Shown here: positions 3,024 through 17,303 of the stretch, piece by piece
Numbering within the stretch: the stretch's first letter is position 1
How the letters are laid out: the number at the start of each line of letters is the position of its first letter
Source: a virus
Reading direction: 5' to 3' (one strand)
Length of the DNA stretch: 64,000 nt
IMG/VR virus record: IMGVR_UViG_3300045988_112819
Notes under the pieces: model-generated
What the model was told of the DNA's origin: nothing
What the model saw: only the letters and a program-made list of their open reading frames with translations
Databases searched by the model: none
Program-made: the position numbers and the translations under genes

Positions 3024-3070
3024 AACTTTTACTTCCTTTCCTTAACTTTCTATATATATTATATAATAAT

Positions 3071-4988: not shown

Positions 4989-5295
4989 GCTAACCGCAGG
5001 AATAACCGATTTAGAAAAACGAATTGAAAAGTTAGAAGAAGGTTTTAGAAAAATCGAATCGAAAAATCGAGGTAAAAGTGGAGAGATGTACGATTTAATG
5101 GAGAAGATAAGATAGATAAACTCTTTGTAAAAGAAGGAATATAGTTATATAGAATAAGAGAAAGAGATAAAATTATAGAAGATTGAAGAAAACTGTGGAA
5201 ATAGTGGGGTTGGGTGCCGATCGGGTCTAGGTACGAACCATCACAACACTCGTCACAACGATCGTAAACCTAGCCTTCCGCGATTATAATATATA

Positions 5296-5340
5296 TAAAA
5301 AAGGAGAGAAGCTACAATACTTCTCTCTCCTTTAATCTTT
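5296..5340. terminator. bidirectional terminator (aggagagaag ... cttctctctcct)
   Basis: imperfect hairpin flanked by A-run and T-run between convergent genes. Confidence 0.55.
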
Positions 5341-5349
5341 TTCCTCTTG

Positions 5350-5805
5350 TTACTTTAAATGCTTCAAAAACTCCATAATACTATCTTCATCAGACTTAGT
5401 ATTACCCTTAACCTGAGGCACACTCTTTGCGAGAGCATCAGAAATAGAGTCAACAGCAATGTCAATTACTTCATCAAGACTCTCTGCATTAACAACTTTA
5501 GCAGAAGTCTTAGCAGTTACAATCATAGCCTGCATAAACTGCTTAATATCATTTGCTGTCCACTTAGGATTGCTCTTGCTATAAACCAATGCAGCCACAC
5601 GACCAACGTCATCCTCAGTGAGAGACAAATCATCAACATTTTCATAGAAAGTAGACTCAATCTCATCCAGAAGAATATCTCGTTCACGGTCTGCGGCGTT
5701 AGCCTCGGAGATTCTATTCATAGCATCAGTAAATGCCTTTGCAATCTCCTCCTGAGTGGAACCATTCTGCATTGCATCACGAATCATAATCTCATAACTA
5801 TTCAT
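5350..5805 (-). CDS. hypothetical acidic protein (151 aa)
   Basis: ORF track; flanked by ccgatcgggtctag direct repeats at 5217 and 5911. Confidence 0.6.
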   Translation of the reverse strand: MNSYEIMIRDAMQNGSTQEEIAKAFTDAMNRISEANAADRERDILLDEIESTFYENVDDLSLTEDDVGRVAALVYSKSNPKWTANDIKQFMQAMIVTAKTSAKVVNAESLDEVIDIAVDSISDALAKSVPQVKGNTKSDEDSIMEFLKHLK

Positions 5806-6335
5806 AATAAGTTCTTTTAGTTAGAAAAAGCGTTATGATGCTTCTTAAACTAAAATCCTCCTTTTCTTTATCTTATATATATTATATTATATTTTTTATA
5901 TATTGTCGAACCGATCGGGTCTAGATAAAAAGATCGCTTTAACGGAATCCCGCGGAAAAGATTTTTCCTTTTCAAATAGTTAGCAACATCTTTGCTATTG
6001 TTTGCTGTATCTTTAATAGTTTTAATTCTGTGAATATCAAGAAATTTTGAGAAAAACGAGGCATTTTTTGCTTATTTTTAAGTAAATTTGTTAGAAAAAC
6101 GCGCATTTTTGCAAGATTTTAGAGGTTTTTTGTTATATTTTGCGATAATAAGAGGTAAAAGATCGCGGGCCGATCGGTTTATCTAGCTAAAATCTCTATT
6201 TTTGAGCTATTTTTATCATAAAATTGTGTTAAACCGATCGGTTTCGCGAAAGAAATCTCTGGTCGTATTTGTTTTTCATAGCTATATCTTTGCTATTGTT
6301 AGTTGTATTTTAGAAAGTTTTGGTACTGTGAATAC

Positions 6336-6363
6336 TTGACAATTTTAAGATTTTTATTATAAA
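6336..6363 (+). promoter_or_regulatory. sigma-70-type promoter (TTGACA-16-TATAAA) inside the repeat region
   Basis: consensus -35 at 6336-6341. Confidence 0.45.
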
Positions 6364-6456
6364 AAATTGGACGAGAGAGCCAATATTGCTGGACCGATCG
6401 GAGCTAGATAAAGAAAGAAGTAAAGTAGGGCCGATCGGTGTTTGGAAGAGGGCGTT

Positions 6457-6591
6457 ATGAATTTTGGGAAAATCGCTATGAAGTTGCGTTATGGCCAAGT
6501 TGCTATGAAAATTTTGCGCTATGGTCCGATCGGGAAAACTCGGGCCGAGTCGCCCGCGACCGGCCCGTCGAGTTTAGGAAATATAAAATAA
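6457..6591 (+). CDS. possible small ORF (44 aa, internally repetitive IAMKLRYGQVAMKILRYG) overlapping the CCGATCGG sites
   Basis: GAGGG RBS 4 nt upstream; could equally be a non-coding transcript. Confidence 0.2.
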   Translation: MNFGKIAMKLRYGQVAMKILRYGPIGKTRAESPATGPSSLGNIK

Positions 6592-6619
6592 AAAGAGAGG
6601 CCAAAGCCTCTCTTTTCTT
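6584..6619. terminator. bidirectional terminator (agagaggc caaa gcctctct)
   Basis: 8-bp stem, A-run and T-run. Confidence 0.65.
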
Positions 6620-7485: not shown

Positions 7486-7511
7486 TTCTTTTACCTCCCT
7501 TCCATGGTTAA

Positions 7512-7540
7512 ATGATACCACATTTTCGGGAGAAAGTCAA
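7512..7540 (-). promoter_or_regulatory. sigma-A promoter TTGACT-17-TATCAT (second TTGACA at 7544-7549)
   Basis: consensus hexamers, exact 17-bp spacer. Confidence 0.6.
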
Positions 7541-7642
7541 GCTGTCAAGTTGCACAAATTTTCAATTCAAAATTGTTGAAAATGACAATAGAAGAAAAAT
7601 TCGGACCGCGGCGCACGCTGGCGGTCCGCTCAAAATTTTGCA

Positions 7643-7676
7643 TAAAAAAAATCTCCCCATAAGGGGAGATTTTTCT
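7643..7676. terminator. intrinsic terminator (atctcccc ataa ggggagat) with A8 / T-run
   Basis: seen directly. Confidence 0.7.
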
Positions 7677-8039
7677 TTAGTTGAGAATTATTGGATATGC
7701 CTTGCGAATAACCACCGTAACCATGGCCGGGGGAGTGTCGCACAAGAAACGGTCATTTCTGATAAAACGACCAATTCCCATATTCTGCCACAAAGTCCGG
7801 TTTACATCCTCGTATCGTAGGGTATTATACTTGGAAAGTTTGATATACCAATCATAGATAAAGGAACCATCTTCCGGCATGGTGTAATCTGGAACCCGCT
7901 TATAATTTCTCGTATGTTCTGCGGCTCTGCGCTCAAGATCATTTGTCGTGCCAATCTTGAGAATATAGCGCCCCTTTTTGTCGATATAATGTCCGACATA
8001 TAGAAACTCTTTTCCCCTTGTCTGTAAACTAACTATAAC
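7677..8039 (-). pseudogene. GIY-YIG nuclease gene without an in-frame start (VGHYIDKKGRYILKIGTTNDLERRAAEH...); the ATG and RBS at 7999 are in the -1 frame, so probably a 1-nt indel at the tcgg(g)aca run or a programmed shift
   Basis: clear GIY-YIG motif in a frame open 8039-7677; ORF track splits it into two overlapping ORFs. Confidence 0.5.
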
Positions 8040-8083
8040 TTACCTCTTTTCTGGTAGGGCCGGGGTAGGCCGACCCTACCACG

Positions 8084-8497
8084 TTATTTCTTCGGTTTAC
8101 GCTTTTGCACAAGCGTCAACTCGAAACTATCCCCACCAATAGAAAACGCAATCTGTCTTTCCTTGTTAGTAATAGACAAGTCAGCGATAGAGAATTGACT
8201 GTTTTTTTCCAAAAACTCTGCCAATTCCGCGATTATACCGCCTTTCGTGGCGTTTGGCTTGCGTTGCCGGGGCGTAAACTTATATGCCGTTGGAGCCTTT
8301 CTCGTCCCCGCATGGGCAAACTTTTGGGCAATTTTTGCCTTATCTGGCGGTAAATCGTATTCAGTCTTTTTATCAGCCTCTACCGCTTTATCATAGGCCA
8401 ATAACTCCGCCTCCTGTTCCGGCGTTAATTGTAGGGCTTTATACCTTGCAATCCGTTCAGCGTCACTAATGCGACTGGATATAATATCACCCCCCAT
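8084..8497 (-). CDS. hypothetical basic protein (about 137 aa; alternative GTG start at 8524 inside the hairpin)
   Basis: ORF track. Confidence 0.55.
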   Translation of the reverse strand: MGGDIISSRISDAERIARYKALQLTPEQEAELLAYDKAVEADKKTEYDLPPDKAKIAQKFAHAGTRKAPTAYKFTPRQRKPNATKGGIIAELAEFLEKNSQFSIADLSITNKERQIAFSIGGDSFELTLVQKRKPKK

Positions 8498-8508
8498 ATT
8501 ATAAGTTA

Positions 8509-8531
8509 GGGCGGGGATTTTCACCCCGCCC
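8509..8531. repeat. hairpin GGGCGGGGATTTTCACCCCGCCC, copy 1 (identical copy at 11149-11173), directly upstream of a gene start
   Basis: exact repeat of a GC-rich stem-loop. Confidence 0.6.
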
Positions 8532-8540
8532 TATACGGGG

Positions 8541-8951
8541 TTACGCCATCTTAAAGAGGGACTTGCCCTTCTTCTCCGTGCAGACCACTCGACCATCGAG
8601 TTTCAACTGCCGCACAAGGGCGGCGACCTTCTGGTTAGAATAGGCCGTCAGATCAGGAATAGCCTTGAAAATTTCCGTGCAGGTTACGCCATCGGTATCG
8701 GCATCCAGACCAGCCAGATACTCCATAATCTGCTCCTTAAAATTCTCGTTCTCCTGCTGGGTGGGAGTCAGCTTCTTGTCACCGCTAGAGCTATTCTTCT
8801 TACGCAGAAGCTCCAGCTCATGGTCAATGACAGTAATAGCCACCTCGATGGTAGTGCCATACTTTACCTCGCCGTCAGTCAAGAGGGCCTTAATGTCCTC
8901 AAAACGCTGGGCCTTAGTAATGCGGATTTTCTTCTCGTCCATAATATACAT
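8541..8951 (-). CDS. hypothetical protein (136 aa; likely start MDEKK at 8942)
   Basis: ORF track. Confidence 0.6.
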   Translation of the reverse strand: MYIMDEKKIRITKAQRFEDIKALLTDGEVKYGTTIEVAITVIDHELELLRKKNSSSGDKKLTPTQQENENFKEQIMEYLAGLDADTDGVTCTEIFKAIPDLTAYSNQKVAALVRQLKLDGRVVCTEKKGKSLFKMA

Positions 8952-8990
8952 CCTTTCTGGTTTTTAGGACTGTCCTTGTCCTTTGATTAT

Positions 8991-9291
8991 ATTGTACCAC
9001 ACTATTTGGTACTTGTCAAGAGGTTTTTCAAACTTTTTTCAAGAACTTTTGCTCTTTACTTGTTTGCCCTCTCAACCTCCCTTATAGTGTAACACACTTT
9101 GGAAAGTTTGTCAAGCCCTTTTTATTTAATTTTCAAGGTGCATTGCCTTGTTTTCTGTACTTATTATAGCACATCTTCAAAGGCTTGTCAAGAGATTCTT
9201 GAAAGATTTTTGAGAAATTCGCTGTCGCTGTCTGCCGTTCGTCTCTCTCACTTTCTGAATGTATTTTACCACAAGCAAAAGCAGATTGCAA
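8991..9291 (-). promoter_or_regulatory. cluster of four tandem consensus sigma-A promoters (P1 8991-9019 TTGACA-17-TACAAT; P2 9086-9114 TTGACA-17-TACACT; P3 9163-9191 TTGACA-17-TATAAT; P4 9263-9291 TTGCAA-17-TAAAAT), each with a TGTGg extended -10
   Basis: four repeated about 30-bp promoter units 77-100 bp apart. Confidence 0.6.
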
Positions 9292-9432
9292 GCGTCAAAT
9301 TGCACAAAAATCGGAATTTTGGGAGAAAGTTTTTGTGCAGAATTTTACACAAAACGGGGTTGAAATTTTTGTGCAACATTTACAAAGAAAAACTCGGGTC
9401 GCGCCGCTCCTGCGCGACCCGCTCAATTTTGT

Positions 9433-9464
9433 ATAAAAAAAAGAGGGGTAAAACCCCTCTTTTA
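9433..9464. terminator. intrinsic terminator (agagggg taaaa cccctct) with A-run / T-run
   Basis: seen directly. Confidence 0.7.
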
Positions 9465-9476
9465 GTCGGAAACGTC

Positions 9477-9626
9477 TTAAATAGCGTTCCCGATTTTGAA
9501 GCACTTGGCCGAAGGCGACCAAAGAGAACCGGCCTTGCGCTTAGCATCAGAACGGGCACGGTCAACATCCTTGCCGACACCCACAAACACATGGCCTGCC
9601 GCAGTCTTAAAATAGAAATTCATCAT
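9477..9626 (-). CDS. hypothetical small protein (49 aa)
   Basis: AAAGGGAG RBS; own promoter and terminator; below ORF-track cutoff. Confidence 0.45.
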   Translation of the reverse strand: MMNFYFKTAAGHVFVGVGKDVDRARSDAKRKAGSLWSPSAKCFKIGNAI

Positions 9627-9674
9627 AACAAAACTCCCTTTCTTTTATGAGGGTTATTCCCTCTTGATGATTAA

Positions 9675-9703
9675 ATTATACCACAATTCGGTGAAGCTGT
9701 CAA
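9675..9703 (-). promoter_or_regulatory. sigma-A promoter TTGACA-17-TATAAT
   Basis: consensus. Confidence 0.6.
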
Positions 9704-9746
9704 GGTTTTTTACATACTTTTCAGATATTTTTTATGGAGCGGGGCG

Positions 9747-10571
9747 TTAAGCCCCGACTCGAATAGTAGGTACATTCCGCATACTTGCGGAAAGCTGACG
9801 CTGAAAGTCTGTCATAGGAGGAAATTCCTTCCTATTCTCATACAGGGCCTTTCTCATGGGCTTATGTTGGCGCATACAGTACCACATGATTTCCGCCTCA
9901 ATGAGAACATCTTCAAGCCCCGTATGACTTTCCTCAAAATCGGTATTTCCAGAGATAAACCGCCACACGATTTCCGCAGTCTTACGGGGAACGCCATTGG
10001 CTTGGATATATCCATTTTCCTGACAGAATTTCTTATAAGTGGGCATATTGCAGATAACATCTTGTGTCATCTTCATAATATCCCAAATTTCCACACTGTC
10101 AAACGGGAACCAGTAGCGAAACTTAGAGCAAGTGACCCATCGTTGAGTGACCCGCAGAGCGTTATCGTCAAACCGGGCATTATAAGCAGCCACTTCCTTA
10201 ATTCCGTATCGCTCGATAGTATCAAGCATAGCCTGACGGATTTCATAAGTAGTAGCCATCTTGCGAGTGCCGGCCCGCAATTCCTCAACATAGCGGGGGA
10301 TTTTCCAATTATAATAGGCCGTCCGCATTAAGTCTCGCTCGTCATTGAAAATGTCCCGATTTACAAAACTTGCAGTTTCGTAAATATTGCCCTTGGTATC
10401 TACTACAGCCCAACCGCAGTCATATACCAGTACATTTGACATATCCATGCGGACACGCTCAGGAGTAATAATCTCCCCATCCTCTCCGATTTCAGCGGGA
10501 ACGGTTTCGGTTAGTGTGTTGGCGGTTTCAGTGTCAACCACCAGCACATAATGTCTGCGCTTATCAATCAT
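9747..10571 (-). CDS. DEDDh-family (DnaQ-like) 3'-5' exonuclease (274 aa)
   Basis: Exo I VVDTET, Exo II AYNARFDDNAL, Exo III HTGLEDVLIEAEI. Confidence 0.65.
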   Translation of the reverse strand: MIDKRRHYVLVVDTETANTLTETVPAEIGEDGEIITPERVRMDMSNVLVYDCGWAVVDTKGNIYETASFVNRDIFNDERDLMRTAYYNWKIPRYVEELRAGTRKMATTYEIRQAMLDTIERYGIKEVAAYNARFDDNALRVTQRWVTCSKFRYWFPFDSVEIWDIMKMTQDVICNMPTYKKFCQENGYIQANGVPRKTAEIVWRFISGNTDFEESHTGLEDVLIEAEIMWYCMRQHKPMRKALYENRKEFPPMTDFQRQLSASMRNVPTIRVGA

Positions 10572-10605
10572 AATCTATCAAGTCCTTTCTTCTCTTGATG
10601 GTATT

Positions 10606-10634
10606 ATTATAGCACATTTAAGGCTTGGTGTCAA
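10606..10634 (-). promoter_or_regulatory. sigma-A promoter TTGACA-17-TATAAT
   Basis: consensus; second promoter TTGCAA-17-TATTAT at 10766-10794. Confidence 0.55.
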
Positions 10635-10893
10635 GAGGAAAAGGAAAGTTTTTTTGGCTTAATCCTTTCAGTAGCTAATTGAAATTTAGCCGTATACTTT
10701 GCTTCCTTTACTTTCTAAGAGTTCGCGACCTCTTGATTTCTTGGCCTCTCCCTCCTGACATGATAATAATACCATACTTTTGGGAGAATTGCAAGATGGC
10801 AAATTGCACAACTTTTCGCCGCCAAAATTGTGCAACATCTACAAAGAAAAAAATTCGGCCCGCACCGCCCAAGCGCGGGCCGCCCAAACGACA

Positions 10894-10934
10894 ATAAAAA
10901 AATACCCCTCTCAATAATGAGAGGGGTATTTTTA
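10894..10934. terminator. intrinsic terminator (atacccctctc aataat gagaggggtat)
   Basis: 11-bp stem, A-run / T-run. Confidence 0.7.
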
Positions 10935-11126
10935 ATATCCAATATATTCCCTATTGATTAGTTCATCTATCCCATATACCAGATCATCAAGAGAGACAGG
11001 AAAATCATCATCAATTTCATTCTCTTCCATGCTCCGGCTAATCTGGCTTATGAGAATTGAAGCATTTCTCAATGTTTGTTTTTCCGTTGAATCAAAAATG
11101 AGCCTATTAACTTTCTTAATTTGCAT
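10932..11126 (-). CDS. hypothetical small acidic protein (64 aa; start MQIKK)
   Basis: AAAGGGAG RBS; ORF track extends to an upstream ATG inside the hairpin. Confidence 0.5.
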   Translation of the reverse strand: MQIKKVNRLIFDSTEKQTLRNASILISQISRSMEENEIDDDFPVSLDDLVYGIDELINREYIGY

Positions 11127-11148
11127 TGACAAAACTCCCTTTCTTTGT

Positions 11149-11173
11149 GGGGCGGGGATTTTCACCCCGCCCC
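11149..11173. repeat. hairpin GGGGCGGGGATTTTCACCCCGCCCC, copy 2
   Basis: identical to 8509-8531. Confidence 0.6.
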
Positions 11174-11177
11174 CCAT

Positions 11178-11639
11178 TCAGTCCAAATTGTTGATATATT
11201 CGATTATGTCTGTCTCTCCTGGATTTATTGTATCTCCTAAATGCCAACCGTACCTAATTTTATCATTATCATCAAAAAGGATAAACGGCGGTTCATAGAA
11301 ACTACGGAATACACATTTGGCTTTGGTCGTTCCGTATGCCACACAATGACATTTATGGGCCGGAAATTTATACCTTGCAAGCCATTCCTTTTTTGCGGCT
11401 GTGACTGCTTTCTTATATTCGGGAGTGCTTTCAGGTGGTAGCCATGTAATTACTCTAATTTCCCATCCGTTATTGATTGCCTTTAGAAGCGCATTTCGGA
11501 GGGCTTCCATGTCCCACATAGGGGCCGCGTCTCGGAATGGGGTAGGGTCTCCATTGCGGAGTTTTTCGAGCCAATTAGGGACTGCATACAAGTCCGCGAT
11601 AGTTCCATCCATGTCAAAGCAGAGCATTTTTTTAGTCAT
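11178..11639 (-). CDS. HAD-superfamily hydrolase, likely 5'(3')-deoxyribonucleotidase-like (153 aa)
   Basis: motif I FDMDGTIADL; AGGAG RBS; promoter TTGACA-17-TATAAT at 11664-11692. Confidence 0.5.
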   Translation of the reverse strand: MTKKMLCFDMDGTIADLYAVPNWLEKLRNGDPTPFRDAAPMWDMEALRNALLKAINNGWEIRVITWLPPESTPEYKKAVTAAKKEWLARYKFPAHKCHCVAYGTTKAKCVFRSFYEPPFILFDDNDKIRYGWHLGDTINPGETDIIEYINNLD

Positions 11640-11645
11640 TGTATA

Positions 11646-11894
11646 TCAATCTCCTTTTGTTTTATTATACCATTTATTGCACACCTTGTCAACAAGTTTT
11701 TCAAAAAAAGTTTTACGCCGATATACCTTATAAGGCATTGACATATAATCTATATAGATCAGAGGGTCTTGTAAAAGCACAGTTCGTATATAAATCTCAT
11801 AATTAACCGGGGTAGTAGTATGCCCGAATTGTCTACGATAAATTTCAGCCACGGTTAAGTATTCATTGGGCTGAATAAACTTTGAAGGTTTCAT
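11646..11894 (-). CDS. hypothetical protein (82 aa)
   Basis: ORF track; AAAGGAGGGG RBS; promoter TTGCAA-17-TATTAT at 11922-11950. Confidence 0.55.
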   Translation of the reverse strand: MKPSKFIQPNEYLTVAEIYRRQFGHTTTPVNYEIYIRTVLLQDPLIYIDYMSMPYKVYRRKTFFEKLVDKVCNKWYNKTKGD

Positions 11895-12052
11895 TTAGTA
11901 CCCCTCCTTTTTTCTGTACTAATAATACCATAATTTAAGGATAATTGCAAGATGGCGAATTGCACAAGATTTCAAGACAAAAATTGTGTAGAACTTACAA
12001 ATAAGAAAACTCGGCGCGCCGCGTGCGTCAGCGCGCCGTCGAATTTTTAGTG

Positions 12053-12084
12053 TATAAAAAAGAAGGGCCGAAGCCCTTCTTTTA
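12053..12084. terminator. intrinsic terminator (agaagggc cgaa gcccttct)
   Basis: seen directly. Confidence 0.65.
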
Positions 12085-12540
12085 TCTTTCAGCCATATTT
12101 GAAAAATACCTTGCGACTAATTTAACCATTTCGTGAATAGATTCATCATTGTGCAGATTTTTGTAACAAATGAATCCAATTTGTCCCCCATCAGAAAAAA
12201 TGGGAGTAATAAACATAGATTTCCACGCTGTCGCAGGTTGGCTGATATTACTCCATTCATCTGGTGGTATAGAAATTTTGAAAGAACTAGGCCCGCTTAA
12301 AAGTTTATCTGAATCGAAGATCGCCGCGGAAATGTGATTAACAGAAAGGGCATTTCGCATTTCGTGGGCATGGTCAACGAAAAAAGATAGTGGAGAATAT
12401 TTCTTGAAGGCTATACAGTCGCCATCAAGAAAAATTTCCATAGGGTCGCCTTCTCTAATTCGCATACTCCTACGAATTTCTCTAGGAATAACAATACGCC
12501 CTAGGTCATCAATATGTCGAACAATACCAACAGCTCTCAT
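12082..12540 (-). CDS. SpoVT-like regulator: AbrB/SpoVT swapped-hairpin N-domain plus GAF-like C-domain (152 aa)
   Basis: GIVRHIDDLGRIVIPREIRRSMRIREGDPMEIF matches the AbrB/SpoVT N-domain. Confidence 0.65.
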   Translation of the reverse strand: MRAVGIVRHIDDLGRIVIPREIRRSMRIREGDPMEIFLDGDCIAFKKYSPLSFFVDHAHEMRNALSVNHISAAIFDSDKLLSGPSSFKISIPPDEWSNISQPATAWKSMFITPIFSDGGQIGFICYKNLHNDESIHEMVKLVARYFSNMAER

Positions 12541-12548
12541 TTTTTTAT

Positions 12549-12584
12549 CGCGGGAGCATAGAATACAAGTCCTATACTCCCGCG
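12549..12584 (-). promoter_or_regulatory. 36-nt hairpin (cgcgggag...ctcccgcg) between the GGAGG Shine-Dalgarno and the ATG of the SpoVT-like gene
   Basis: 8-bp GC stem; SD-to-ATG spacing is 44 nt unless folded. Confidence 0.45.
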
Positions 12585-12594
12585 CCTCCTTTCC

Positions 12595-12993
12595 TTAAAG
12601 CGATTTCCGCAGTTCGTCCAGCAGAGTAGACAGAGTTTTCATGTCGCCGCCCATTTCCAGCTTGACGCAGATCAGACTTGCATTTTCCTCTACCCACTTT
12701 GTCACAGTGGACAGCTCTTCATCCATCGTTTGGTTGATGGGGTTGTAAAGACTGCACATATTTGACTTGGCACACTCCTGGTCATAATAGCGGCGGAGCT
12801 TATATCCCTTCGCTGTGGCGCGCTCAATAATCCTTGTATTCAGCGCCTCAATCTCTTTTCGGCCTTCCTCGATGAAATCCTCAAACTCTTTCATAGCGTC
12901 CGCATACTTGGCTCTGATTTCCTCTCGCTTGGCGTTCGCAATCTTGTTGACCTCATCATTGATATAGGCTTCAATCCTCTTAGTAACACGCAT
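12595..12993 (-). CDS. hypothetical coiled-coil protein (132 aa)
   Basis: ORF track; promoter TTGACA-17-TACAAT at 13054-13082. Confidence 0.6.
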   Translation of the reverse strand: MRVTKRIEAYINDEVNKIANAKREEIRAKYADAMKEFEDFIEEGRKEIEALNTRIIERATAKGYKLRRYYDQECAKSNMCSLYNPINQTMDEELSTVTKWVEENASLICVKLEMGGDMKTLSTLLDELRKSL

Positions 12994-13090
12994 TTCTAAA
13001 ACTCCCTTTCTTATTTTAATTTATTTTTGGGGGGCTGCCCCTTCCATAGTCTTATTGTACCACAGAAGGGGCAGTTTGTCAACCCCTTTT

Positions 13091-13321
13091 TTACAAGGAA
13101 AGTAAATCCATCATAGTCATTTCATCAACTGTCTTATCGGCTTCCTCATCGAAAATACCCTTGATAATATCGGCCGCGTCATCGGGAGTACACATGCCGA
13201 TCCGCAGGAATTTTCCAAAAGACTGGAGCATTGCCTGTGCTGCTTCTCCTGGGCAGAACTCCTCCATGGTCTTATGCAGAAGAATAATCCCCTGTCTATC
13301 CTGCTCAGTCATTCTATACAT
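13091..13321 (-). CDS. hypothetical acidic protein (76 aa)
   Basis: ORF track; promoter TTGACA-17-TATAAT at 13373-13401. Confidence 0.55.
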   Translation of the reverse strand: MYRMTEQDRQGIILLHKTMEEFCPGEAAQAMLQSFGKFLRIGMCTPDDAADIIKGIFDEEADKTVDEMTMMDLLSL

Positions 13322-13405
13322 AGCAATATTTCCTTTCTGGTTTAATGAGTTTTCCTTCTCTTTACATTATTGATTATACCACTGTTTAAGCGGTTTGTCA
13401 ACCCT

Positions 13406-13558
13406 TTACATCAAATTTTTTGCCAAATATGCGAACATTAGAATTTCTGCGGCAAACATGATTTCAAGCCGAATACAGCTCTTTTGAGCAGCCGCCATTA
13501 ACTGCCATGCAAGGCAGGCCACAAACGCAATCAAAACAATCATTGTGAAGGTAGTCAT
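13406..13558 (-). CDS. small membrane protein (50 aa)
   Basis: AAAGGAG RBS 8 nt from ATG; one hydrophobic helix. Confidence 0.4.
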   Translation of the reverse strand: MTTFTMIVLIAFVACLAWQLMAAAQKSCIRLEIMFAAEILMFAYLAKNLM

Positions 13559-13587
13559 ATATATACTCCTTTTCTGGTTAAGAGGGT

Positions 13588-13821
13588 TTATACCCTCTTA
13601 ACCTCGATAATCTCCATATCGAAATCTTCCCAATATGCGCCCATGAGAAGGTCATGCCGCAAGTCCCCTTCATTCTCATAGTCCATATCTTCCAGAATTT
13701 GGCTCCACTCGCTTTCGGAATACTGGGCCTTGAGCCAGTCCCATCCCGCATGGCGTGCGCCAGTTTCAGTATCAGAAACGCCGATAATCTTTTCTCTACT
13801 GTCAGCCATTACCAGATACAT
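13588..13821 (-). CDS. hypothetical acidic protein (77 aa)
   Basis: ORF track; promoter TTGACT-17-TATACT at 13875-13903. Confidence 0.55.
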   Translation of the reverse strand: MYLVMADSREKIIGVSDTETGARHAGWDWLKAQYSESEWSQILEDMDYENEGDLRHDLLMGAYWEDFDMEIIEVKRV

Positions 13822-14021
13822 AACTCATTCTCCTTTTGTTTCGAGGGCTTTTGTTCTCCCCTCTTGATGATACAAGTATAACAGATAACAGATAGAAAGT
13901 CAAGCGATTTTGGGAAAAAATCTTCCATCAGATTGCACAACAATTCGAGCCTAAAATTGTGCAAATTGCCTCTTGATAAAAAATTCCGGCCGCGCCTGTG
14001 GTGCACGGCCGGGCGAACGAA

Positions 14022-14053
14022 TAAAAAAAGAACCTCCTGAATTTCAGGAGGTC
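14022..14053. terminator. intrinsic terminator (acctcctga att tcaggaggt)
   Basis: 9-bp stem after an A-run. Confidence 0.6.
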
Positions 14054-14094
14054 ATTAATTTCTGCATACCAACAACTCCCTTTCTTTTGAGAAG

Positions 14095-14328
14095 TCAATC
14101 GGCATTTTCAACAATCTTTAATCCGTTTGCTTGGATAATTTTCATAGCTTCTTCAAGTGAGGAATCAACCGATCCGCAGTCAATGCAGATGTATTTTCTG
14201 CCATCTTTTACCATAGTAGTGAAATAGTATTCCTAACCGGAAGTAAGTCCCATTTGTTCACGCAAACGAATCGGAATCATAATTCTACCACTTGAATCCA
14301 ATTTGCGAGAGAAAGTAGTTTCTTGCAT
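14095..14328 (-). CDS. AbrB-family swapped-hairpin DNA-binding protein (77 aa), 1 in-frame TAG as sense
   Basis: RKLDSSGRIMIPIRLREQMGL matches AbrB VDELGRVVIPIELRRTLGI. Confidence 0.6.
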
Positions 14329-14394
14329 TTTGATAAATAAATTCTAGTGACCTAGGCTCGTGCGAAAAACGACTCCATCACGGGAATCGCCGAT

Positions 14395-14532
14395 TTAGAA
14401 CAATCGGAAGGAACATTTACCACTCGCAAGGCATTTCTGGCAGAACTGAGACATAGGACAATTCTTGCAAGAATCCTAGTTCAAACAGAACTCCAAAATA
14501 ACCGCGAGTGCTTTCAGCACTTCTAAGGTCAT
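14395..14532 (-). CDS. Cys-rich small protein (45 aa, CxxC x3), 1 in-frame TAG
   Basis: AAGGAG RBS; TAA stop; same frame as the AbrB gene downstream. Confidence 0.4.
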
Positions 14533-14580
14533 TAGAAAAACTCCTTTCTTTATTTTTCTATAATTATTATAATATATTTT

Positions 14581-14620
14581 TTTGAAAAAATCAATAGGGC
14601 CGGCATTACGCCAGCCCTAA
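14581..14620. terminator. terminator hairpin (tagggccggc attacg gccagcccta) followed by a T-run on the minus strand
   Basis: seen directly. Confidence 0.5.
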
Positions 14621-14737
14621 TCTCTGTAGCCAAACCAGATGGTATTTACCAATGTGAAGTAGAACTGTGCCATATCCCTTATTTGTCCAAACAGTGGAAC
14701 CGATAGGATATGTATGCGGTAAACGCTCAATACTCAC
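14606..14737 (-). CDS. possible small protein (43 aa) from a GTG overlapping the upstream TGA (GTGA)
   Basis: GGAGGTGG RBS at 7 nt. Confidence 0.25.
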   Translation of the reverse strand: MSIERLPHTYPIGSTVWTNKGYGTVLLHIGKYHLVWLQRLGLA

Positions 14738-14949
14738 TTTAGTTCCACCTCCTCGAAAGCTCCAATTTTTAGCAGATAATTATATAAGGCTCTATCTTGC
14801 TTGTCGCCGGTATTAAAATCAAGTGTACAAACACAGCCGGTAACATTGGAATTGAGAGGATGACCCAAACACCAGCCAGCCATATTACAAATTGTGTTTC
14901 CAAACTCCACAGACTTTTCTGCACTTTCAAATTTAATAACAGCAATCAT
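14734..14949 (-). CDS. hypothetical protein (71 aa; start MIAVIKF)
   Basis: AAGGAG RBS; ORF track begins at an upstream ATG (14988). Confidence 0.55.
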   Translation of the reverse strand: MIAVIKFESAEKSVEFGNTICNMAGWCLGHPLNSNVTGCVCTLDFNTGDKQDRALYNYLLKIGAFEEVELK

Positions 14950-15012
14950 ATTTATTTCTCCTTTTTTATCGTGGGGAGTGGAGGCCATAAACCTCCACTC
15001 CCGCAGGTTTTC

Positions 15013-15252
15013 TTAACCATCTACATAAATGATTAGATTGTTGCCTCTTGCTTTAATGCCAGTTACCGGAAGTCCCAGCACCCATTCCTTAGACGCCTCA
15101 ATGACGTCTCCTCCCAGGGTTATCTTGTGATCAGGTAGCTCATGGTAATGAGCTTGAGTATTCTCATTGATAATTTCGACCCCTTCCCCGTCAAAGAACA
15201 TGGTATCTTCTGCGAGCGGAGAAAGCAGACCTGCAATCATTTTCAAAGTCAT
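15013..15252 (-). CDS. hypothetical protein (79 aa)
   Basis: ORF track; promoter TTGACA-17-TATTAT at 15307-15335. Confidence 0.6.
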   Translation of the reverse strand: MTLKMIAGLLSPLAEDTMFFDGEGVEIINENTQAHYHELPDHKITLGGDVIEASKEWVLGLPVTGIKARGNNLIIYVDG

Positions 15253-15469
15253 TTCTTTTACTTCCTTTCAAATTCTTTTTGTGACCTTGTCCCTCTGGAC
15301 AAGTATATAATAACACATGACAAGAGGAATGTCAAGTAATTTCGGGAGAAAATCTTTTGTCGAATTGCACAGACTTTCGATCATATAATTGTTGAAACTG
15401 CCGGATAAATAAAAATTTGGGCCGCGGCGCACGCTGGCGGCCCGGCGAAAAGTCAATATGGAAAAGTGC

Positions 15470-15515
15470 ATAAAAATGACTGGCAATCTTTGTGCAGATT
15501 GCCAGTCATTTTTAT
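15470..15515. terminator. intrinsic terminator (tgactggcaatc ... gattgccagtca) plus T-run
   Basis: 12-bp stem. Confidence 0.7.
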
Positions 15516-15519
15516 TCCT

Positions 15520-15753
15520 TTACAGCTCCATGGTTTCCATGAGATAGCCTGTGCCCATCGGCACCTCCCGTAGATTGCTGGGACTTATACGCAACTTATA
15601 TTTCCTATTGATTTTATTCGCCGCACTTGTCTTATCTCTCGCTTGGACAATTACTGGTATATGGAGTTTATTCAGAGTGGGCTTATTAAGACTGAAATAT
15701 CCCATCTCTCTGCGCTTGCGGCCCATGGCGTCGATATAAGTCCCTCTATACAT
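15520..15753 (-). CDS. hypothetical small basic protein (77 aa)
   Basis: ORF track; GGAGG RBS. Confidence 0.6.
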   Translation of the reverse strand: MYRGTYIDAMGRKRREMGYFSLNKPTLNKLHIPVIVQARDKTSAANKINRKYKLRISPSNLREVPMGTGYLMETMEL

Positions 15754-15766
15754 TTTTTTCCTCCTA

Positions 15767-15913
15767 TTATTTAGTCATGAGAACGAACATATTATATTCG
15801 CTGTGCTGTGGGTTTGGCTCACAGTTATCCGCCACTATATCAGCCCAACTAAGAACTGCCCAGAGTAGGAGAGCGGCACAAATGCCGCCTCCTATCCGCT
15901 TAATAATTCTCAT
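15767..15913 (-). CDS. small membrane / secreted protein (48 aa)
   Basis: GGAGG RBS; ATGA overlap with the upstream stop. Confidence 0.4.
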   Translation of the reverse strand: MRIIKRIGGGICAALLLWAVLSWADIVADNCEPNPQHSEYNMFVLMTK

Positions 15914-16212
15914 TTCCATTTCTTTGCCTCCTGTTCTTTAACCCATTCAGTACCGATTGTATCTCCGACCATAGCAACCTTATATTCGTCTTCGCTTGCA
16001 ATTCTGGTATGCAGATTGCTATTGATAAACTTTCTATTGATATAAGCCCAGTGTGGCATATAGGCCACTCGCATGGCATTAAAAGCATCCAGGTCTAAGA
16101 TGATGCCGTCCTCTACCTCTGCGGAACGCACATTCATCTTATACCGCAAAAGTTTAATAAATTCACGCTTTCTAAAAGTAGGCCCAACGAACCACTTAAT
16201 ATAATTGTTCAT
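15910..16212 (-). CDS. hypothetical protein (100 aa)
   Basis: ORF track; GGAGAAAGG RBS. Confidence 0.6.
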   Translation of the reverse strand: MNNYIKWFVGPTFRKREFIKLLRYKMNVRSAEVEDGIILDLDAFNAMRVAYMPHWAYINRKFINSNLHTRIASEDEYKVAMVGDTIGTEWVKEQEAKKWK

Positions 16213-16258
16213 AGTCTTTTATCCTTTCTCCCCGTATAGCCGTTAGGTCAGCTTCTTT

Positions 16259-16405
16259 TTAATCTACGATTTCTCCACTGGATAAATCCACAATCCAATG
16301 ATTAGGATTGACTATCTCGTGACTGACCTTCCATCTTGCCATTGAAAGGGTGGATGGTTCATAATAGCGCATTTTCTCATTGGCTAAAACTTGTAACTGA
16401 TACAT
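16259..16405 (-). CDS. hypothetical small protein (48 aa)
   Basis: AAAGGGG RBS. Confidence 0.35.
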   Translation of the reverse strand: MYQLQVLANEKMRYYEPSTLSMARWKVSHEIVNPNHWIVDLSSGEIVD

Positions 16406-16435
16406 ATAGTATGCCCCTTTCTTTTAATTATTATA

Positions 16436-16469
16436 ACCCTGCCTTGCCTTGTGTTTTGCAAGGCAGGGT
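16436..16469. terminator. hairpin (accctgccttgc ... gcaaggcagggt)
   Basis: 12-bp stem downstream of 16480. Confidence 0.5.
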
Positions 16470-16479
16470 TTATAAACTG

Positions 16480-16854
16480 TTATCCTCTAATTTCTTCTTC
16501 TTGGGTCTTTGTCGCCCAATCAAAAGAGGTACGAACATCGGAAGGTCTGCGGAATTGCTCTGCTTCGGCCTCTGTCCCGCCTAATGCCATAGCATAGGCT
16601 TTCCAGTCAACCGTTCCTTTTGCGGTAGTTTCTTTATATACCACCGCTTTCGCCTTACCCTGCATTTGTACCGTGCCATATAGATAACTTGTTTTGTCCG
16701 TAGCCTTAAAAGCCTTACCTAATCTGGAGAATAGCTCTTTAGCCTTAGCCTTAGCTGCTTTCTCCGCCGCCTCCGCCGCAGACTTAGCCATCTTAGCGGC
16801 CATATACTCCATAATAATGGCTCGATCTTCATTGGTAAAATCAATCTTTTTCAT
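16480..16854 (-). CDS. hypothetical Ala/Lys-rich protein (124 aa)
   Basis: GGGAG RBS; promoter TTGACA-17-TACAAT at 16908-16936. Confidence 0.55.
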   Translation of the reverse strand: MKKIDFTNEDRAIIMEYMAAKMAKSAAEAAEKAAKAKAKELFSRLGKAFKATDKTSYLYGTVQMQGKAKAVVYKETTAKGTVDWKAYAMALGGTEAEAEQFRRPSDVRTSFDWATKTQEEEIRG

Positions 16855-17303
16855 ACTCTTTTGACTCCCTTTTTTTTTGTGGTGTGGTTCTCTTTTGTTC
16901 TGTCTGTATTGTATCAAACCTTTAGCAGTTTGTCAATACCTTTTTTGAAATTTTTTTAATTTTCAAAGTGCCGTGCTTTTGTCTCTGTCCTACTGGACAA
17001 GTCCAGTTTACCACCAAAATGCTCACTTGTCAATAGTTTTTTTGAAATTTCTTTCTCTCTCTTTTGCACAAAATAAATAACATCTTGTTGTGCAGTTTGC
17101 ACAAATCCTTTACGCGCGCGTATTCCTTTAGGGGGCGTGCTTTCTTGCTTTCGTACTTTAACGAGTGAAAGAGGCCAACTACACTTCAATACTTTACCAT
17201 GTGAAAGAGGGGCGTGTATTTTGGGAAAAACTGGAAATTTTTTTGTAAAATCGTTCTGCCACGCCATTTCAAAATCTAAATCGACTTTTCAATCTCAATA
17301 ACG

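Follow-up and report, generated by a model that had tools for sequence, protein, structure and literature searches.

Early promoters of T4-type phages are carried by promoter-early stem-loops (PeSL), in which a GC-rich stem-loop terminator lies upstream of a sigma-70 early promoter (Arbiol et al. 2010, PMC2839356; Comeau et al. 2014, PMC4122927), and recombination crossovers have been mapped within or beside the stem-loop (PMC2839356; PMC4122927). The early block of the phage studied here, contained in a 64,000-nucleotide window (IMGVR_UViG_3300045988_112819), resembles this arrangement in that small composite cassettes are repeated among small, mostly orphan early genes, a GC-rich stem-loop that could stop upstream transcription precedes an upstream element, itself followed by a strong early promoter of host-sigma type, and indels and replacements in related phages are bounded by cassettes, with crossovers in or beside the stem-loop. 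It differs in lineage and host, being a TAG-recoded gut phage with Firmicutes-type extended -10 promoters; in the separate ordinary terminator before each cassette; in stem-loop geometry, fixed at 27 nt; and in having a specific inverted repeat, a candidate operator common to host chromosomes, where PeSL has an AT-rich upstream region.

The host-takeover module of Bacillus phage SPO1 reportedly combines densely packed, very small early genes with many near-consensus sigma-A promoters. Tiny early genes, near-consensus sigma-A promoters and interspersed terminators, all on the same strand and close to a genome end, are features of both loci. The SPO1 module is not known to contain a repeated operator or a GC hairpin of fixed size, and no sequence relationship between it and the window was found. 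Early promoters of phi29 are said to carry Spo0A boxes, and its p4 sites to have two arms ~15 bp apart. The likeness lies in early promoters whose binding sites couple early transcription to a host regulator and, for p4, in a small dimer that binds a pair of inverted arms, set well apart ahead of the -35, and touches RNA polymerase. However, the motif differs: TGTCGAA, the Spo0A box, shows no enrichment here (6 copies vs 5.5 expected), and no p4 homologue was found.

We consider it probable that each early operon is headed by a PeSL-like insulated promoter cassette with an operator for a regulator conserved across the host clade. If so, phage early operons would share one operator with host chromosomes and other phages.

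Organization and recurrence of the early modules

Six complete modules, all on the minus strand, were found; a seventh (6541-6617) is partial, and the block opens with a variant form (~17100). The order is constant: an ordinary terminator, a 27-nt nearly all-GC hairpin with a T-tract, TTGCACAA-N16-TTGTGCAA, and a sigma-A extended -10 promoter. In the complete modules each GC hairpin is preceded, at a distance of ~10-30 nt, by an ordinary A-tract/T-tract terminator (T1) and stands 20 nt upstream of the inverted repeat, with a TTGNNN-N17-TGnTAnnnT promoter downstream. The features are as follows.

16908..17104, minus strand: M0, start of the early block, with TTGTGCAA half-sites at 17097-17104 and 17064-17071
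Within 16908..17104, minus strand: M0, adjacent TGCACAA, giving TTGTGCAAacTGCACAA
Within 16908..17104, minus strand: M0, short ACGCGCGCGT palindrome in place of the 27-nt hairpin
17033-17005 and 16936-16908, minus strand: M0, two tandem promoters
15470..15515, minus strand: M1 T1, intrinsic terminator of the upstream operon, 19-20 bp stem with A-tract and T-tract
15419..15445, minus strand: M1 GC hairpin GGGCCGC-cagcgtgcgcc-GCGGCCC, then AAATTTTT
15365..15396, minus strand: M1 inverted repeat, degenerate distal arm TTCAACAA, 16-nt spacer, proximal arm CTGTGCAA
15307..15335, minus strand: M1 promoter TTGACA-N17-TGtTATTAT, -35 29 nt downstream of the proximal arm
14031..14053, minus strand: M2 T1 terminator
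13986..14012, minus strand: M2 GC hairpin CCGGCCGTGC-accacag-GCGCGGCCGG, then AATTTTTT
13933..13964, minus strand: M2 inverted repeat, perfect, TTGCACAA-N16-TTGTGCAA
13875..13916, minus strand: M2 TTCCCAAAA box (13908-13916) and promoter TTGACT-N17-TGtTATACT, -35 29 nt from the inverted repeat
12056..12083, minus strand: M3 T1 terminator
12012..12038, minus strand: M3 GC hairpin CGGCGCGC...GCGCGCCG, then AGTTTTC
11960..11991, minus strand: M3 inverted repeat, degenerate distal arm CTACACAA, N16, proximal arm TTGTGCAA
11922..11950, minus strand: M3 promoter TTGCAA-N17-TGgTATTAT, -35 9 nt from the inverted repeat
10898..10933, minus strand: M4 T1 terminator
10856..10882, minus strand: M4 GC hairpin CGGCCCGCGC...GTGCGGGCCG, then AATTTTTTT
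10804..10835, minus strand: M4 inverted repeat, perfect, TTGCACAA-N16-TTGTGCAA
10766..10794, minus strand: M4 promoter TTGCAA-N17-TGgTATTAT, 9 nt from the inverted repeat, TTCTCCCAAAAG box in spacer
9439..9463, minus strand: M5 T1 terminator
9395..9421, minus strand: M5 GC hairpin CGGGTCGCGC-aggagcg-GCGCGACCCG, then AGTTTTT
9300..9376, minus strand: M5 array of four half-sites, TTGCACAA 9369-9376, TTGTGTAA 9345-9352, CTGCACAA 9333-9340, TTGTGCAA 9300-9307
Inside 9300..9376, minus strand: M5 TTTCTCCCAAAAT box within the second half-site pair
9263..9291, minus strand: M5 promoter TTGCAA-N17-TGgTAAAAT, with three further tandem consensus promoters down to 8991
7647..7674, minus strand: M6 T1 terminator
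7602..7628, minus strand: M6 GC hairpin CGGACCGC-cagcgtgcgcc-GCGGTCCG, then AATTTTT
7550..7580, minus strand: M6 inverted repeat, degenerate distal arm TTCAACAA, N15, proximal arm TTGTGCAA
7512..7540, minus strand: M6 promoter TTGACT-N17-TGgTATCAT, 9 nt from the inverted repeat, TTTCTCCCGAAAA box in spacer
6541..6617, minus strand: M7, partial module of T1 (6590-6617) and GC hairpin CGGGCCGGTCGCGGGCGACTCGGCCCG (6541-6567), without inverted repeat or promoter

An earlier sequence-only reading had placed six hairpins and six inverted repeats correctly within 1-2 nt, and the order it gave, from terminator through hairpin and inverted repeat to promoter, was borne out in all six complete modules. 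Its count of "at least six" agrees with the complete modules but overlooked the M7 terminator and hairpin (6541-6617) and the hairpin-less M0 (TTGTGCAA at 17064 and 17097). The inverted repeat that it described for all six is present in each as the proximal arm TTGTGCAA, but the distal arm is degenerate in three (TTCAACAA, CTACACAA and TTCAACAA), so the proximal arm is the constant element.

Twelve copies of TTGTGCAA were counted against 2.1 expected and two of exact TTGCACAA-N(10-22)-TTGTGCAA against 0, and 8 of 11 same-strand TGTGCAA sites fall inside modules, which take up 4% of the window. Related phages supplied 130 unique module variants from 29 genomes, with an upstream T-run in 117, TTGTGCAA in 107 and the extended -10 promoter in 99. 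The sequence-only reading was to be abandoned if the elements failed to recur beyond chance or were absent from relatives; since they recur far above chance and are conserved in related genomes, it is not refuted.

The copies within the window are paralogous, with 60-80% identity across ~125 nt, as expected if the modules were duplicated selfish or neutral intergenic DNA with no function beyond promoter carriage. This explanation was already disfavored and is highly improbable, because hairpin pairing is maintained by compensatory changes, distant genomes and unrelated phages retain both the arms and their phasing to the -35, and host chromosomes carry the same operator motif.

The GC hairpin as a predicted fail-safe terminator

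Seven GC hairpins are present in the window, compared with 0.005 expected from shuffles, and none was found in its other 53 kb (of 64 kb). T1 and the GC hairpin are independent folds (z-scores -3.3 to -8), and a terminator scan picks up four of the seven hairpins. Their orientation is always that of transcription, and the T-tract is strand-specific, with 4.8 T per 8 nt past the hairpin on the gene strand vs 1.7 on the opposite strand. The hairpin is followed by RRTTTTT, and the one or two purines between stem and T-tract count against a terminator role. In 35 distinct sequences, for which position and GC content were the selection criteria, pairing holds in 94.6% of cells and both sides change in 7 of 10 pairs; none of 500 shuffles attains this score, and slid controls pair at 28-42%. 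Across 28 related contigs the hairpin length remains 27 nt in nearly all copies and compensatory changes keep the pairing, the covariation by which the sequence-only reading had proposed to check the hairpins. Non-Watson-Crick cells are chiefly G.T on the sense strand.

We propose that transcription of the upstream operon would stop at its own ordinary terminator T1, and that the very stable GC hairpin with RRTTTTT would form the first element of the next cassette, most likely as a fail-safe terminator. Such a hairpin would keep read-through RNA polymerase off the downstream operator and promoter. The fixed 27-nt length of nearly all copies, the invariant bases and the GC-rich loops are not accounted for by a plain back-up terminator. 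The 53 unique hairpins gathered at 27 nt show no indels, in a scan whose window was fixed at 27 nt and beside which a few copies of 25, 28 or 29 nt are listed. Positions C1, G3, C6 and G7 are invariant, the other stem positions vary and covary, and the GC-rich loops share a core in either orientation (GCGTGCG or CGCACGC). Hairpins of this class are essentially lacking in 420 kb of host-type DNA, and the late-gene terminators of the phage itself include none.

A consensus TTGACA-N17-TATAAT promoter stops 3-5 nt short of the hairpin in 18 module variants, so that the transcript would start with the hairpin, an odd arrangement for a terminator. Together with the fixed geometry and the maintained pairing with G.U on the sense strand, these variants would fit an RNA element other than a terminator, such as a hairpin protecting the 5' or 3' end, a site of processing, or a structure recognized by a phage antitermination or RNA-binding factor. 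We judge this improbable: 112 of the 130 variants have no upstream promoter and, with T1 ahead of the hairpin, should deliver little RNA to it; the adjoining downstream T-tract is a standard terminator signature, and no Rfam match was obtained.

Exchange of gene cassettes between related phages

Gene cassettes lying between hairpins are swapped, gained and lost among related genomes, and cassette strings differ by whole cassettes. The indel of one of them (cassette J) is bounded exactly at hairpin +31 and hairpin +0, a gene cassette in a related locus (L022) has been inserted with a copy of the M7-type hairpin context on either side, and homology breakpoints show a 4-5 fold excess at the edges of hairpins. 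Against hairpin-focused exchange, ~55% of breakpoints lie >300 nt from any hairpin, and phage mosaic joints tend to sit between genes anyway. The M7 hairpin is almost unchanged in sequence in 23+ related contigs, and the CCGATCGG-rich non-coding region next to it is the end point of seven related contigs. Because the cassettes are alike, they would double as sites where related phages exchange, gain and lose small early-gene blocks, presumably by recombination. Among the roles suggested earlier for the hairpin, those of second terminator and of recombination hotspot are each strengthened by the covarying pairing, one-strand T-tract, co-orientation and one hairpin-bounded indel.

The same data bear on the idea that the hairpin acts mainly as DNA, forming a cruciform or single-strand structure for a recombination, replication-priming or end-processing protein and marking the borders of mobile promoter-gene cassettes, somewhat like integron attC. 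Like attC, these are hairpin-forming sites that keep structure over sequence and delimit variable gene cassettes. The constant length and invariant end bases, amid stem positions that vary and covary, would suit such a role, as would the GC-rich loops with a core in both orientations, the two hairpins exactly bounding the cassette J indel, the placement of the L022 cassette, the invariant M7-type hairpin adjoining a region of contig ends and the lack of this class in host-type DNA. However, the hairpins are short perfect palindromes that lack extrahelical bases and R/L core sites, each cassette brings a promoter of its own, which integron cassettes do not, and neither an integrase nor a structure-specific recombinase was identified in the 64-kb window. 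The T-tract is one-sided in a hairpin always oriented with transcription, wobble pairs favor the sense strand, and breakpoint enrichment at hairpins is only moderate. A primarily DNA-level role is thus unlikely, and the fail-safe terminator remains our preferred reading.

The inverted repeat as a candidate operator

Sequence rather than pairing is kept in the inverted repeat, whose arms are each near-palindromic (TTG..CAA) and are separated by 15/16 or 26 nt in related phages. The gap to the -35 is 8/9, 18 or 29 nt in the phage family, and unrelated viral contigs give 8/9, 18/19 or 29 nt, counts that take in related sequences and are not independent; such gaps imply helical phasing with the -35. 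Conserved sequence, location upstream of the -35 and helical phase strongly indicate an operator for a sequence-specific DNA-binding protein, in line with the operator-like character first ascribed to the repeat.

Relative to the predicted start site, the repeat is centered near -60, -70 or -81. Promoters served by it match the consensus at 10.2 of 12 positions, compared with 10.9 for plain early promoters, and TATAAT occurs in 5 of 96 and 113 of 249, respectively, related and thus non-independent sequences being included in both comparisons. CRP sites at class I activator promoters reportedly lie at -61.5, -71.5 and -82.5; the helical-turn steps of the operator centers, the sub-consensus core promoters and the capacity to serve divergent promoters are all similar here. 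This geometry and the sub-consensus promoters suggest putative activation through RNA polymerase contact in the class I manner, with repression as the alternative. The site itself differs from that of CRP, spanning 32 bp with arms 24 bp apart center to center, dimensions that exclude a CRP/FNR-type dimer site.

The exact inverted repeat was found, mostly at intergenic positions, in at least 120 bacterial contigs; at least 120 further viral contigs carry it as well, both counts being samples and lower bounds. Among the matches listed, ~93 (about 75%) of the bacterial contigs are Clostridia, intergenic sites make up 65% in Clostridia vs 7% in non-Clostridia, and the motif is nearly absent from Bacilli. 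Conserved flanking bases are seen in the Clostridia and viral sets only. Chromosomal sites lie upstream of ordinary genes, including transporters, ECF sigma factors, TetR pairs and a 40-44 aa protein family. This distribution contradicts an operator peculiar to this phage or its AbrB genes and points to a shared regulator, undescribed so far. Given the motif in Oscillospirales-type Clostridia chromosomes and in the promoters of many other phages, the binding protein is most likely either a regulator conserved across the host clade or a paralogue of that regulator carried by phages.

AbrB/SpoVT-type proteins of the early block

The sequence-only reading had ascribed the operator to a regulator of the phage or of its host, with either of two phage proteins as an example.

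14095..14328, minus strand: g11, AbrB-type, 77 aa, one in-frame TAG, candidate phage regulator
12082..12540, minus strand: g16, SpoVT-like, 152 aa, N-terminal 82 aa matching TIGR02851

The N-domain of g16 matches the SpoVT model TIGR02851 with E=8.5e-27. The g11 gene occurs in 28 of 29 related genomes, with the single in-frame TAG in 22 of 28; being universal in the phage family, it is still a candidate regulator, and its distinct AT-rich promoter type and in-frame TAG suggest delayed synthesis. A tetramer of either protein could place one swapped-hairpin dimer on each pseudo-palindromic TTGYRCAA arm, the near-palindromy of which would fit a dimeric domain, and the accumulating protein would turn early promoters off or over. 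Among the matches listed, ~15 of 120 short motif-bearing viral pieces also encode an AbrB-type protein. This assignment is nevertheless partly disfavored and, in our view, doubtful. Among the matches listed, the ~93 Clostridia contigs have the motif ahead of ordinary chromosomal genes, and Bacilli nearly lack it despite near-identical SpoVT/AbrB N-domains. Moreover, g16 is found at only about half of related loci, the arms lack TGGNA, the motif reported for B. subtilis AbrB, and host loci show one AbrB/SpoVT-type gene near a site, which lies downstream of the gene. Separately, we observed that the phage recodes TAG as Gln and has a TAG-gated AbrB gene, and a DGR was noticed.

A recurrent promoter module in the early gene block

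On the minus strand, some 27 small genes, most of them without a family match, follow one another in a run from position ~17,300 to ~6,500. Six intergenic regions in this early block have one common layout, and its elements lie exactly where the sequence-only reading had placed them. Each module opens with an A-tract/T-tract terminator of ordinary type (T1), followed 10–30 nt further on by a 27-nt hairpin of almost pure G+C that starts with CGG, ends with CCG and passes through A/G-A/G into a run of T. About 20 nt beyond this GC hairpin lies the inverted repeat TTGCACAA-N16-TTGTGCAA, and the final element is a sigma-A promoter with an extended -10 (TTGNNN-N17-TGnTAnnnT), which in the six complete modules (M1–M6) matches 9–11 of the 12 consensus positions. 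Two further regions carry parts of the layout:

6541-6617, minus strand: partial module M7, a terminator and GC hairpin without inverted repeat and without promoter
about 17100, minus strand: first promoter region of the block, with half-sites and a short GC palindrome only

The window holds seven GC hairpins, where block-wise shuffles give an expectation of 0.005, and none occurs in the other 53 kb; the seven copies fall within 11 kb, in which most genes encode fewer than 150 aa and lack a family match. TTGTGCAA is present in 12 copies (2.1 expected) and the exact two-arm pattern in 2 (0 expected), and 8 of the 11 same-strand copies of TGTGCAA are inside modules, which make up 4% of the window. 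The elements thus recur beyond chance, and the module is real. Alignment of seven modules returned the common order and an extra short box, TTCTCCCRAAA. As a loose genome-wide pattern this box is not enriched (7 copies versus 5.2 expected); it is weakly enriched in the repeat spacers of other phages (6 versus 2.1), and TCCCAAA is enriched in modules (5 of 8 copies). We regard the box as a family-specific feature.

Modules delimit exchangeable cassettes in related phages

Relatives were gathered with the 274-aa protein encoded at 9747-10571, yielding 29 viral contigs with 36–98% identity to that protein. Modules were present in 28 of the 29, the gene content of the block being variable across these 28 genomes. 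Absence from related genomes had been named as an outcome that would speak against the module; because modules are kept across relatives, the opposite was observed. Among 130 distinct module variants from 29 genomes, the window included, an upstream T-run was found in 117, TTGTGCAA no more than 150 nt downstream of the hairpin in 107, and an extended -10 promoter in 99.

When the genomes were cut at the hairpins and the pieces clustered into lettered cassettes, related genomes proved to differ by whole cassettes. The string reads F-H-O-L-C-A-J-I in the window, F-P-O-L-C-A-I in the related phage L002, F-H-c-N-C-A-J-I in L005 and F-P-Q-o-L-C-A-J-p in L028. Between the window and the relatives L001–L003, homology breaks off 31 nt beyond the beginning of the M6 hairpin and sets in again with the first M7 hairpin base, so cassette J was gained or lost exactly between two hairpins. 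In a comparison that included related genomes, the ends of segments at least 90% identical were 4–5-fold enriched at hairpin edges and 2.5-fold at the promoter; over half of the segment ends lie more than 300 nt from any hairpin.

The GC hairpin is a covarying stem-loop of rigid geometry

Folding gives one stem-loop for T1 and a separate one for the GC hairpin. The stems of the GC hairpins have 8–11 pairs, 7–9 of them GC, with loops of 5–11 nt, and are followed by A/G-A/G-T5-7, so that one or two purines stand between stem and T-run. The T-run is restricted to the gene strand (4.8 T per 8 nt versus 1.7 on the opposite strand). A GC-rich stem-loop, a close U-tract and co-orientation with the upstream gene are, in silico, the attributes of an intrinsic terminator, and a terminator scan called 4 of the 7 GC hairpins terminator-like.

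For covariation analysis across related phages, a check proposed with the module, we assembled 35 distinct upstream windows that were GC-rich at the expected offset, anchoring them on the inverted repeat or on position because sequences must not be picked by their pairing. In this set 94.6% of cells pair, and compensatory changes have altered both sides of 7 of the 10 hairpin pairs, giving a covariation score reached by 0 of 500 shuffles; sliding the partner by 1–3 columns lowers pairing to 28–42%. No decayed copies were seen: windows anchored on the inverted repeat held either a well-paired 27-mer or no GC run. Across 53 unique hairpins, obtained by a scan with a fixed 27-nt window, C1, G3 and C6 are invariant, G7 is nearly so, and the loop is free of indels; a looser scan recovered a few copies of 25, 28 or 29 nt. 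Of the cells that are not Watson-Crick pairs, most are G.T on the sense strand; they reflect few independent events. Together with the T-run, they point to a function of the hairpin in the sense RNA. By structure, covariation, T-tract and orientation, all judged in silico, the GC hairpin is a candidate counterpart of the terminating stem-loop of PeSLs, the promoter/stem-loop early cassettes of T4-type phages, and termination is its predicted activity. Rfam searches at gathering and permissive thresholds gave only sub-threshold matches to terminator-containing leaders.

Might this be nothing other than an ordinary host-style terminator? The other terminators of the phage are AT-flanked hairpins unlike the cassette class, and 420 kb of host-type DNA contained 4 such GC hairpins, the one with a T-run being in a phage-like contig; this explanation was rejected. 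The GC hairpin class is, as judged from these comparisons, special to the cassettes. In distant phages with the same repeat, such a hairpin occurs at 11 of 54 oriented sites versus 1 of 54 in a control window (sites among the matches listed), and three of these hairpins, found beyond the close family, measure exactly 27 nt and are spaced 20–21 nt from the repeat. A simple back-up terminator does not explain this rigid geometry and restriction to cassettes.

In 18 module variants a consensus promoter fires directly into the hairpin. One clade of relatives has a perfect TTGACA-N17-TGgTATAAT ahead of the hairpin (L011–L027, ~13420-13510; L017, 9684-9750; L025, 8020-8085; L022, 13454-13515). This promoter ends 3–5 nt before the stem of the invariant M7-type hairpin and of some other hairpins, and transcription from such promoters would begin at the hairpin and reach the T-run within ~35 nt.

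The inverted repeat is shared with Clostridia and many other phages

In three of the six modules the distal arm of the repeat is degenerate, and the proximal arm has no compensating change. Since the distal arm decays without compensation, the repeat is conserved as a sequence and not as a potential hairpin; with arms conserved in sequence and devoid of covariation, an RNA or DNA hairpin was rejected. Within the phage family the arm spacer is 15/16 nt in 59 cases and 26 nt in 19, and the gap between proximal arm and -35 measures 8/9 nt in 64 cases, 18 nt in 11 and 29 nt in 13, the gap classes being steps of one helical turn. For gaps of 8/9, 18/19 and 29 nt the computed repeat centres fall near -60, -70 and -81, in agreement with the classic positions of class I activators. 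Within the family, repeat-served promoters match 10.2 of 12 consensus positions versus 10.9 of 12 for plain early promoters, and have TATAAT in 5 of 96 cases versus 113 of 249, both comparisons being drawn from related, non-independent samples.

When genomes of bacteria and archaea were scanned for the 32-bp pattern in its exact form, at least 120 contigs matched. About 93 of those listed are Clostridia, mainly Acutalibacteraceae, Oscillospiraceae, Ruminococcus (including R. bromii ATCC 27255), Faecalibacterium and unnamed Eubacteriales; the other 27 are spread over Proteobacteria, Bacteroidota, Actinomycetota and one archaeon, and look like chance hits. Among the matches listed, 65% of Clostridia sites are intergenic versus 7% of the others, and flanking bases are conserved only in Clostridia and viral sites, as with the A that follows TTGCACAA in 69%. 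A TTGACA -35 adjoins many Clostridia sites. Intergenic bias, conserved flanks and the adjoining -35 thus separate the Clostridia set from the rest. The host genes near the sites are varied, comprising a 40–44 aa protein family, a TetR/aminotransferase pair, ABC-transporter binding proteins, ECF-type sigma factors and GPH transporters. In Acutalibacteraceae, Oscillospiraceae and Ruminococcaceae MAGs (host contigs L034, L056, L072, L082, L099, L118 and L121), the repeat lies 6 nt upstream of the -35 of the conserved 40–44 aa gene, whose product has the consensus ...EI..K.FSFKKL.KVIELDAL... and no Pfam or NCBIfam match.

The same exact pattern was found in at least 120 viral contigs with G+C from 0.29 to 0.59. 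Among the matches listed, the repeat lies 8/9, 18/19 or 29 nt from the -35, with an additional 24-nt class in high-GC phages, and often stands between divergent promoters. The first genes downstream of the viral repeats encode diverse small phage proteins and no one regulator, and clustering of phage downstream genes with host flanking genes in search of an autoregulated regulator gave no single family. In the high-GC phages (viral contigs L158, L163, L172, L176–L178, L197, L201, L229 and others, G+C 0.55–0.59), the 24-nt gap to the -35 is accompanied by a second recurrent word, GCACGGTACAGG or CACGCAACAGTG, present both within the spacer and ahead of the -35; this suggests a composite operator in another phage group.

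Taken together, repeat centres at class I-like positions, sharing with the host clade and sub-consensus promoters lead us to read the repeat as a putative operator of a regulator conserved in the host clade, which probably acts through contact with RNA polymerase. An operator common to host chromosomes and many other phages would imply an undescribed regulator of a major gut clade. Full-text literature searches for the motif gave only primers and unrelated eukaryotic sites, and no description of it in the library covered.

Candidate binding proteins

Two genes of the early block encode proteins of the AbrB/SpoVT type:

14095-14328, minus strand: g11, AbrB-type protein of 77 aa
12082-12540, minus strand: g16, SpoVT-like protein whose N-terminal 82 aa match TIGR02851 (E = 8.5e-27)

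Either is a candidate binder of the repeat; among 29 family genomes, 28 encode g11. This assignment is opposed by the absence of g16 from about half of the related loci and by the occurrence of the motif next to ordinary chromosomal genes. The motif does not accompany the conserved SpoVT/AbrB domain wherever it is present, among the matches listed: Bacilli conserve the same DNA-binding domain and have almost no motif, contributing 1 of the at least 120 matches listed, with the GC-rich spacer typical of chance hits. Nor do host sites lie beside AbrB-type genes, save for one SpoVT gene that ends 17 nt before a site; a search beside host sites for homologues of AbrB/SpoVT, Spo0A and the early-block protein g22 found only this gene and the phage-like contig L111. 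An AbrB-type gene was present at one only of the host loci examined, and an AbrB-type protein in ~15 of the at least 120 other motif-bearing viral pieces listed, which are short. The winged-helix-like g22 (8541-8951), g23 and a T5orf172-domain protein are conserved in all family loci and are further candidates. Control through Spo0A boxes, as in phi29, was rejected: TGTCGAA occurs in 6 copies versus 5.5 expected, one of them in a module.

TAG recoding and the g10/g11 pair

Under the standard code, ORFs of 100 codons or more account for 34% of the window; with TAG as a sense codon the share rises to 89%. In relatives the in-frame TAGs align with CAA/CAG glutamine codons, so the phage reads TAG as glutamine. 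The late genes (20634-58981, plus strand) contain up to 101 in-frame TAGs, this number being reached in a 2908-aa ORF at 37022-45748. A tRNA scan found no suppressor tRNA in the window.

The early block is otherwise free of TAG, its sole TAG-containing genes being g11 and g10 (14395-14532, minus strand), which encodes a 45-aa Cys-rich protein just upstream of g11. Each is found in 28 of the 29 related genomes. In 22 of 28 genomes g11 contains exactly one TAG, whose position differs between lineages (codon 25, 32 or 40); g10 likewise contains a single TAG in 22 of 28, placed at codon 19 or 32 as counted in the window gene. An AT-rich promoter that lacks both repeat and hairpin drives the two genes. 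This arrangement suggests that g11 is a regulator whose synthesis waits for TAG suppression.

Comparison with known systems

In T4-type phages, PeSLs are strong sigma-70 early promoters that follow a GC-rich terminating stem-loop; they are clustered among orphan genes, and crossovers have been mapped in or beside the stem-loop (PMC2839356, PMC4122927). The window shares with them a host-sigma early promoter, in M1–M6 and in most variants of the relatives, many copies flanking small orphan genes in a plastic region, and indels or replacements bounded by cassettes, as in the whole-cassette differences and the J indel. A nucleotide search of the early block against INPHARED phages gave no match. 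Given this result, a different promoter style and TAG recoding, we consider the module an analogue of PeSLs and not a member; by this analogy it is best described as a PeSL-like, insulated and putatively regulator-controlled early-promoter cassette of an unrelated phage lineage. It goes beyond the known PeSL kind in its host-shared operator and its rigid, cassette-restricted hairpin.

Other hairpin-bearing systems were rejected. N4-like hairpin promoters have stems of 5–7 bp and a 3-nt loop, compared with 8–11 bp and 5–11 nt here; no RNA polymerase was found among the scanned proteins, and sigma-A promoters follow the hairpins. The 2908-aa ORF was read, by sequence inspection alone, as a tape measure protein. 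Integron attC sites do not fit, as no integrase was present among the scanned proteins of this incomplete genome and every cassette has a promoter.

A joint reading, which we put forward tentatively and consider rather doubtful as a whole, would run as follows. A major, undescribed global regulator in gut Clostridia of the Oscillospirales type (lineages of Ruminococcus, Faecalibacterium and Acutalibacteraceae) would have TTGCACAA-N16-TTGTGCAA as its operator, and well over a hundred phage lineages would wire early or divergent promoters to this regulator in strict helical phase in order to read host state. The fixed 27-nt GC hairpin would be more than a terminator, marking the borders of mobile promoter cassettes as a structure-specific element, and an in-frame TAG, placed there deliberately, would delay the family's universal AbrB-type regulator, so that a genetic-code switch would set the time at which early transcription changes.

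Shuffling of early genes by repeated promoter-terminator cassettes was previously known from T4-type coliphages. That an unrelated gut phage with a recoded stop codon has the same design suggests a general way to build and exchange host-takeover gene sets. The putative operator is a precise, searchable sequence that would tie phage early transcription to a regulator shared with the chromosomes of Oscillospirales, an abundant gut clade in which genetic manipulation is difficult and transcriptional control almost uncharacterised. Motif, phasing rules and candidate proteins make it testable what binds, which host state is reported and whether TAG times the switch, and the cassette may serve as a ready-made insulated promoter part for engineering these bacteria.

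Additional features of the window

G+C is 0.39–0.47 in the early block (8001-17000) versus about 0.29–0.37 in the late region and flanks. Ahead of the gene at 8541-8951, four tandem near-consensus promoters occupy 330 nt (8960-9291, minus strand) with no ORFs between them, and a leader of ~130 nt (10635-10766, minus strand) runs from the M4 promoter to a second consensus promoter; these could yield short non-coding transcripts or form a promoter stack. Leaders at 7498-7541, 9661-9704, 10592-10635 and 13861-13904 (minus strand) begin a few nt after the -10 with a common (A)TCATCAAGAGGG motif, Shine-Dalgarno-like and far from the start codon, which is reminiscent of Firmicutes 5' mRNA stabilisers.

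Another set of minus-strand genes, g10/g11 included, is preceded by an AT-rich upstream element of about TATAATATATAATAAATATA, followed by AAGAAAGGA and the start codon (845-895, 3020-3070, 5859-5893 and 14542-14576, minus strand). Its core 11-mer occurs 22 times versus 11.2 expected, and the element may represent a different promoter class.

Directly downstream of the invariant M7 hairpin, a mostly non-coding stretch of 1.3 kb (5217-6533) contains all 7 copies of the palindrome CCGATCGG, for which 0.25 would be expected. Seven related contigs end 0–1.9 kb past the M7 hairpin, and the region is suggestive of a genome end, an origin or an assembly-breaking repeat.

A diversity-generating retroelement (DGR) lies at 60.1–62.5 kb, with a reverse transcriptase gene at 60124-61341 (minus strand; phrog_1423, E = 3.5e-84). 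Its 103-nt template and copy (61648-61750 and 62371-62473) differ almost only at template adenines, and the copy is at the 3' end of a 542-aa gene (62357-63985).
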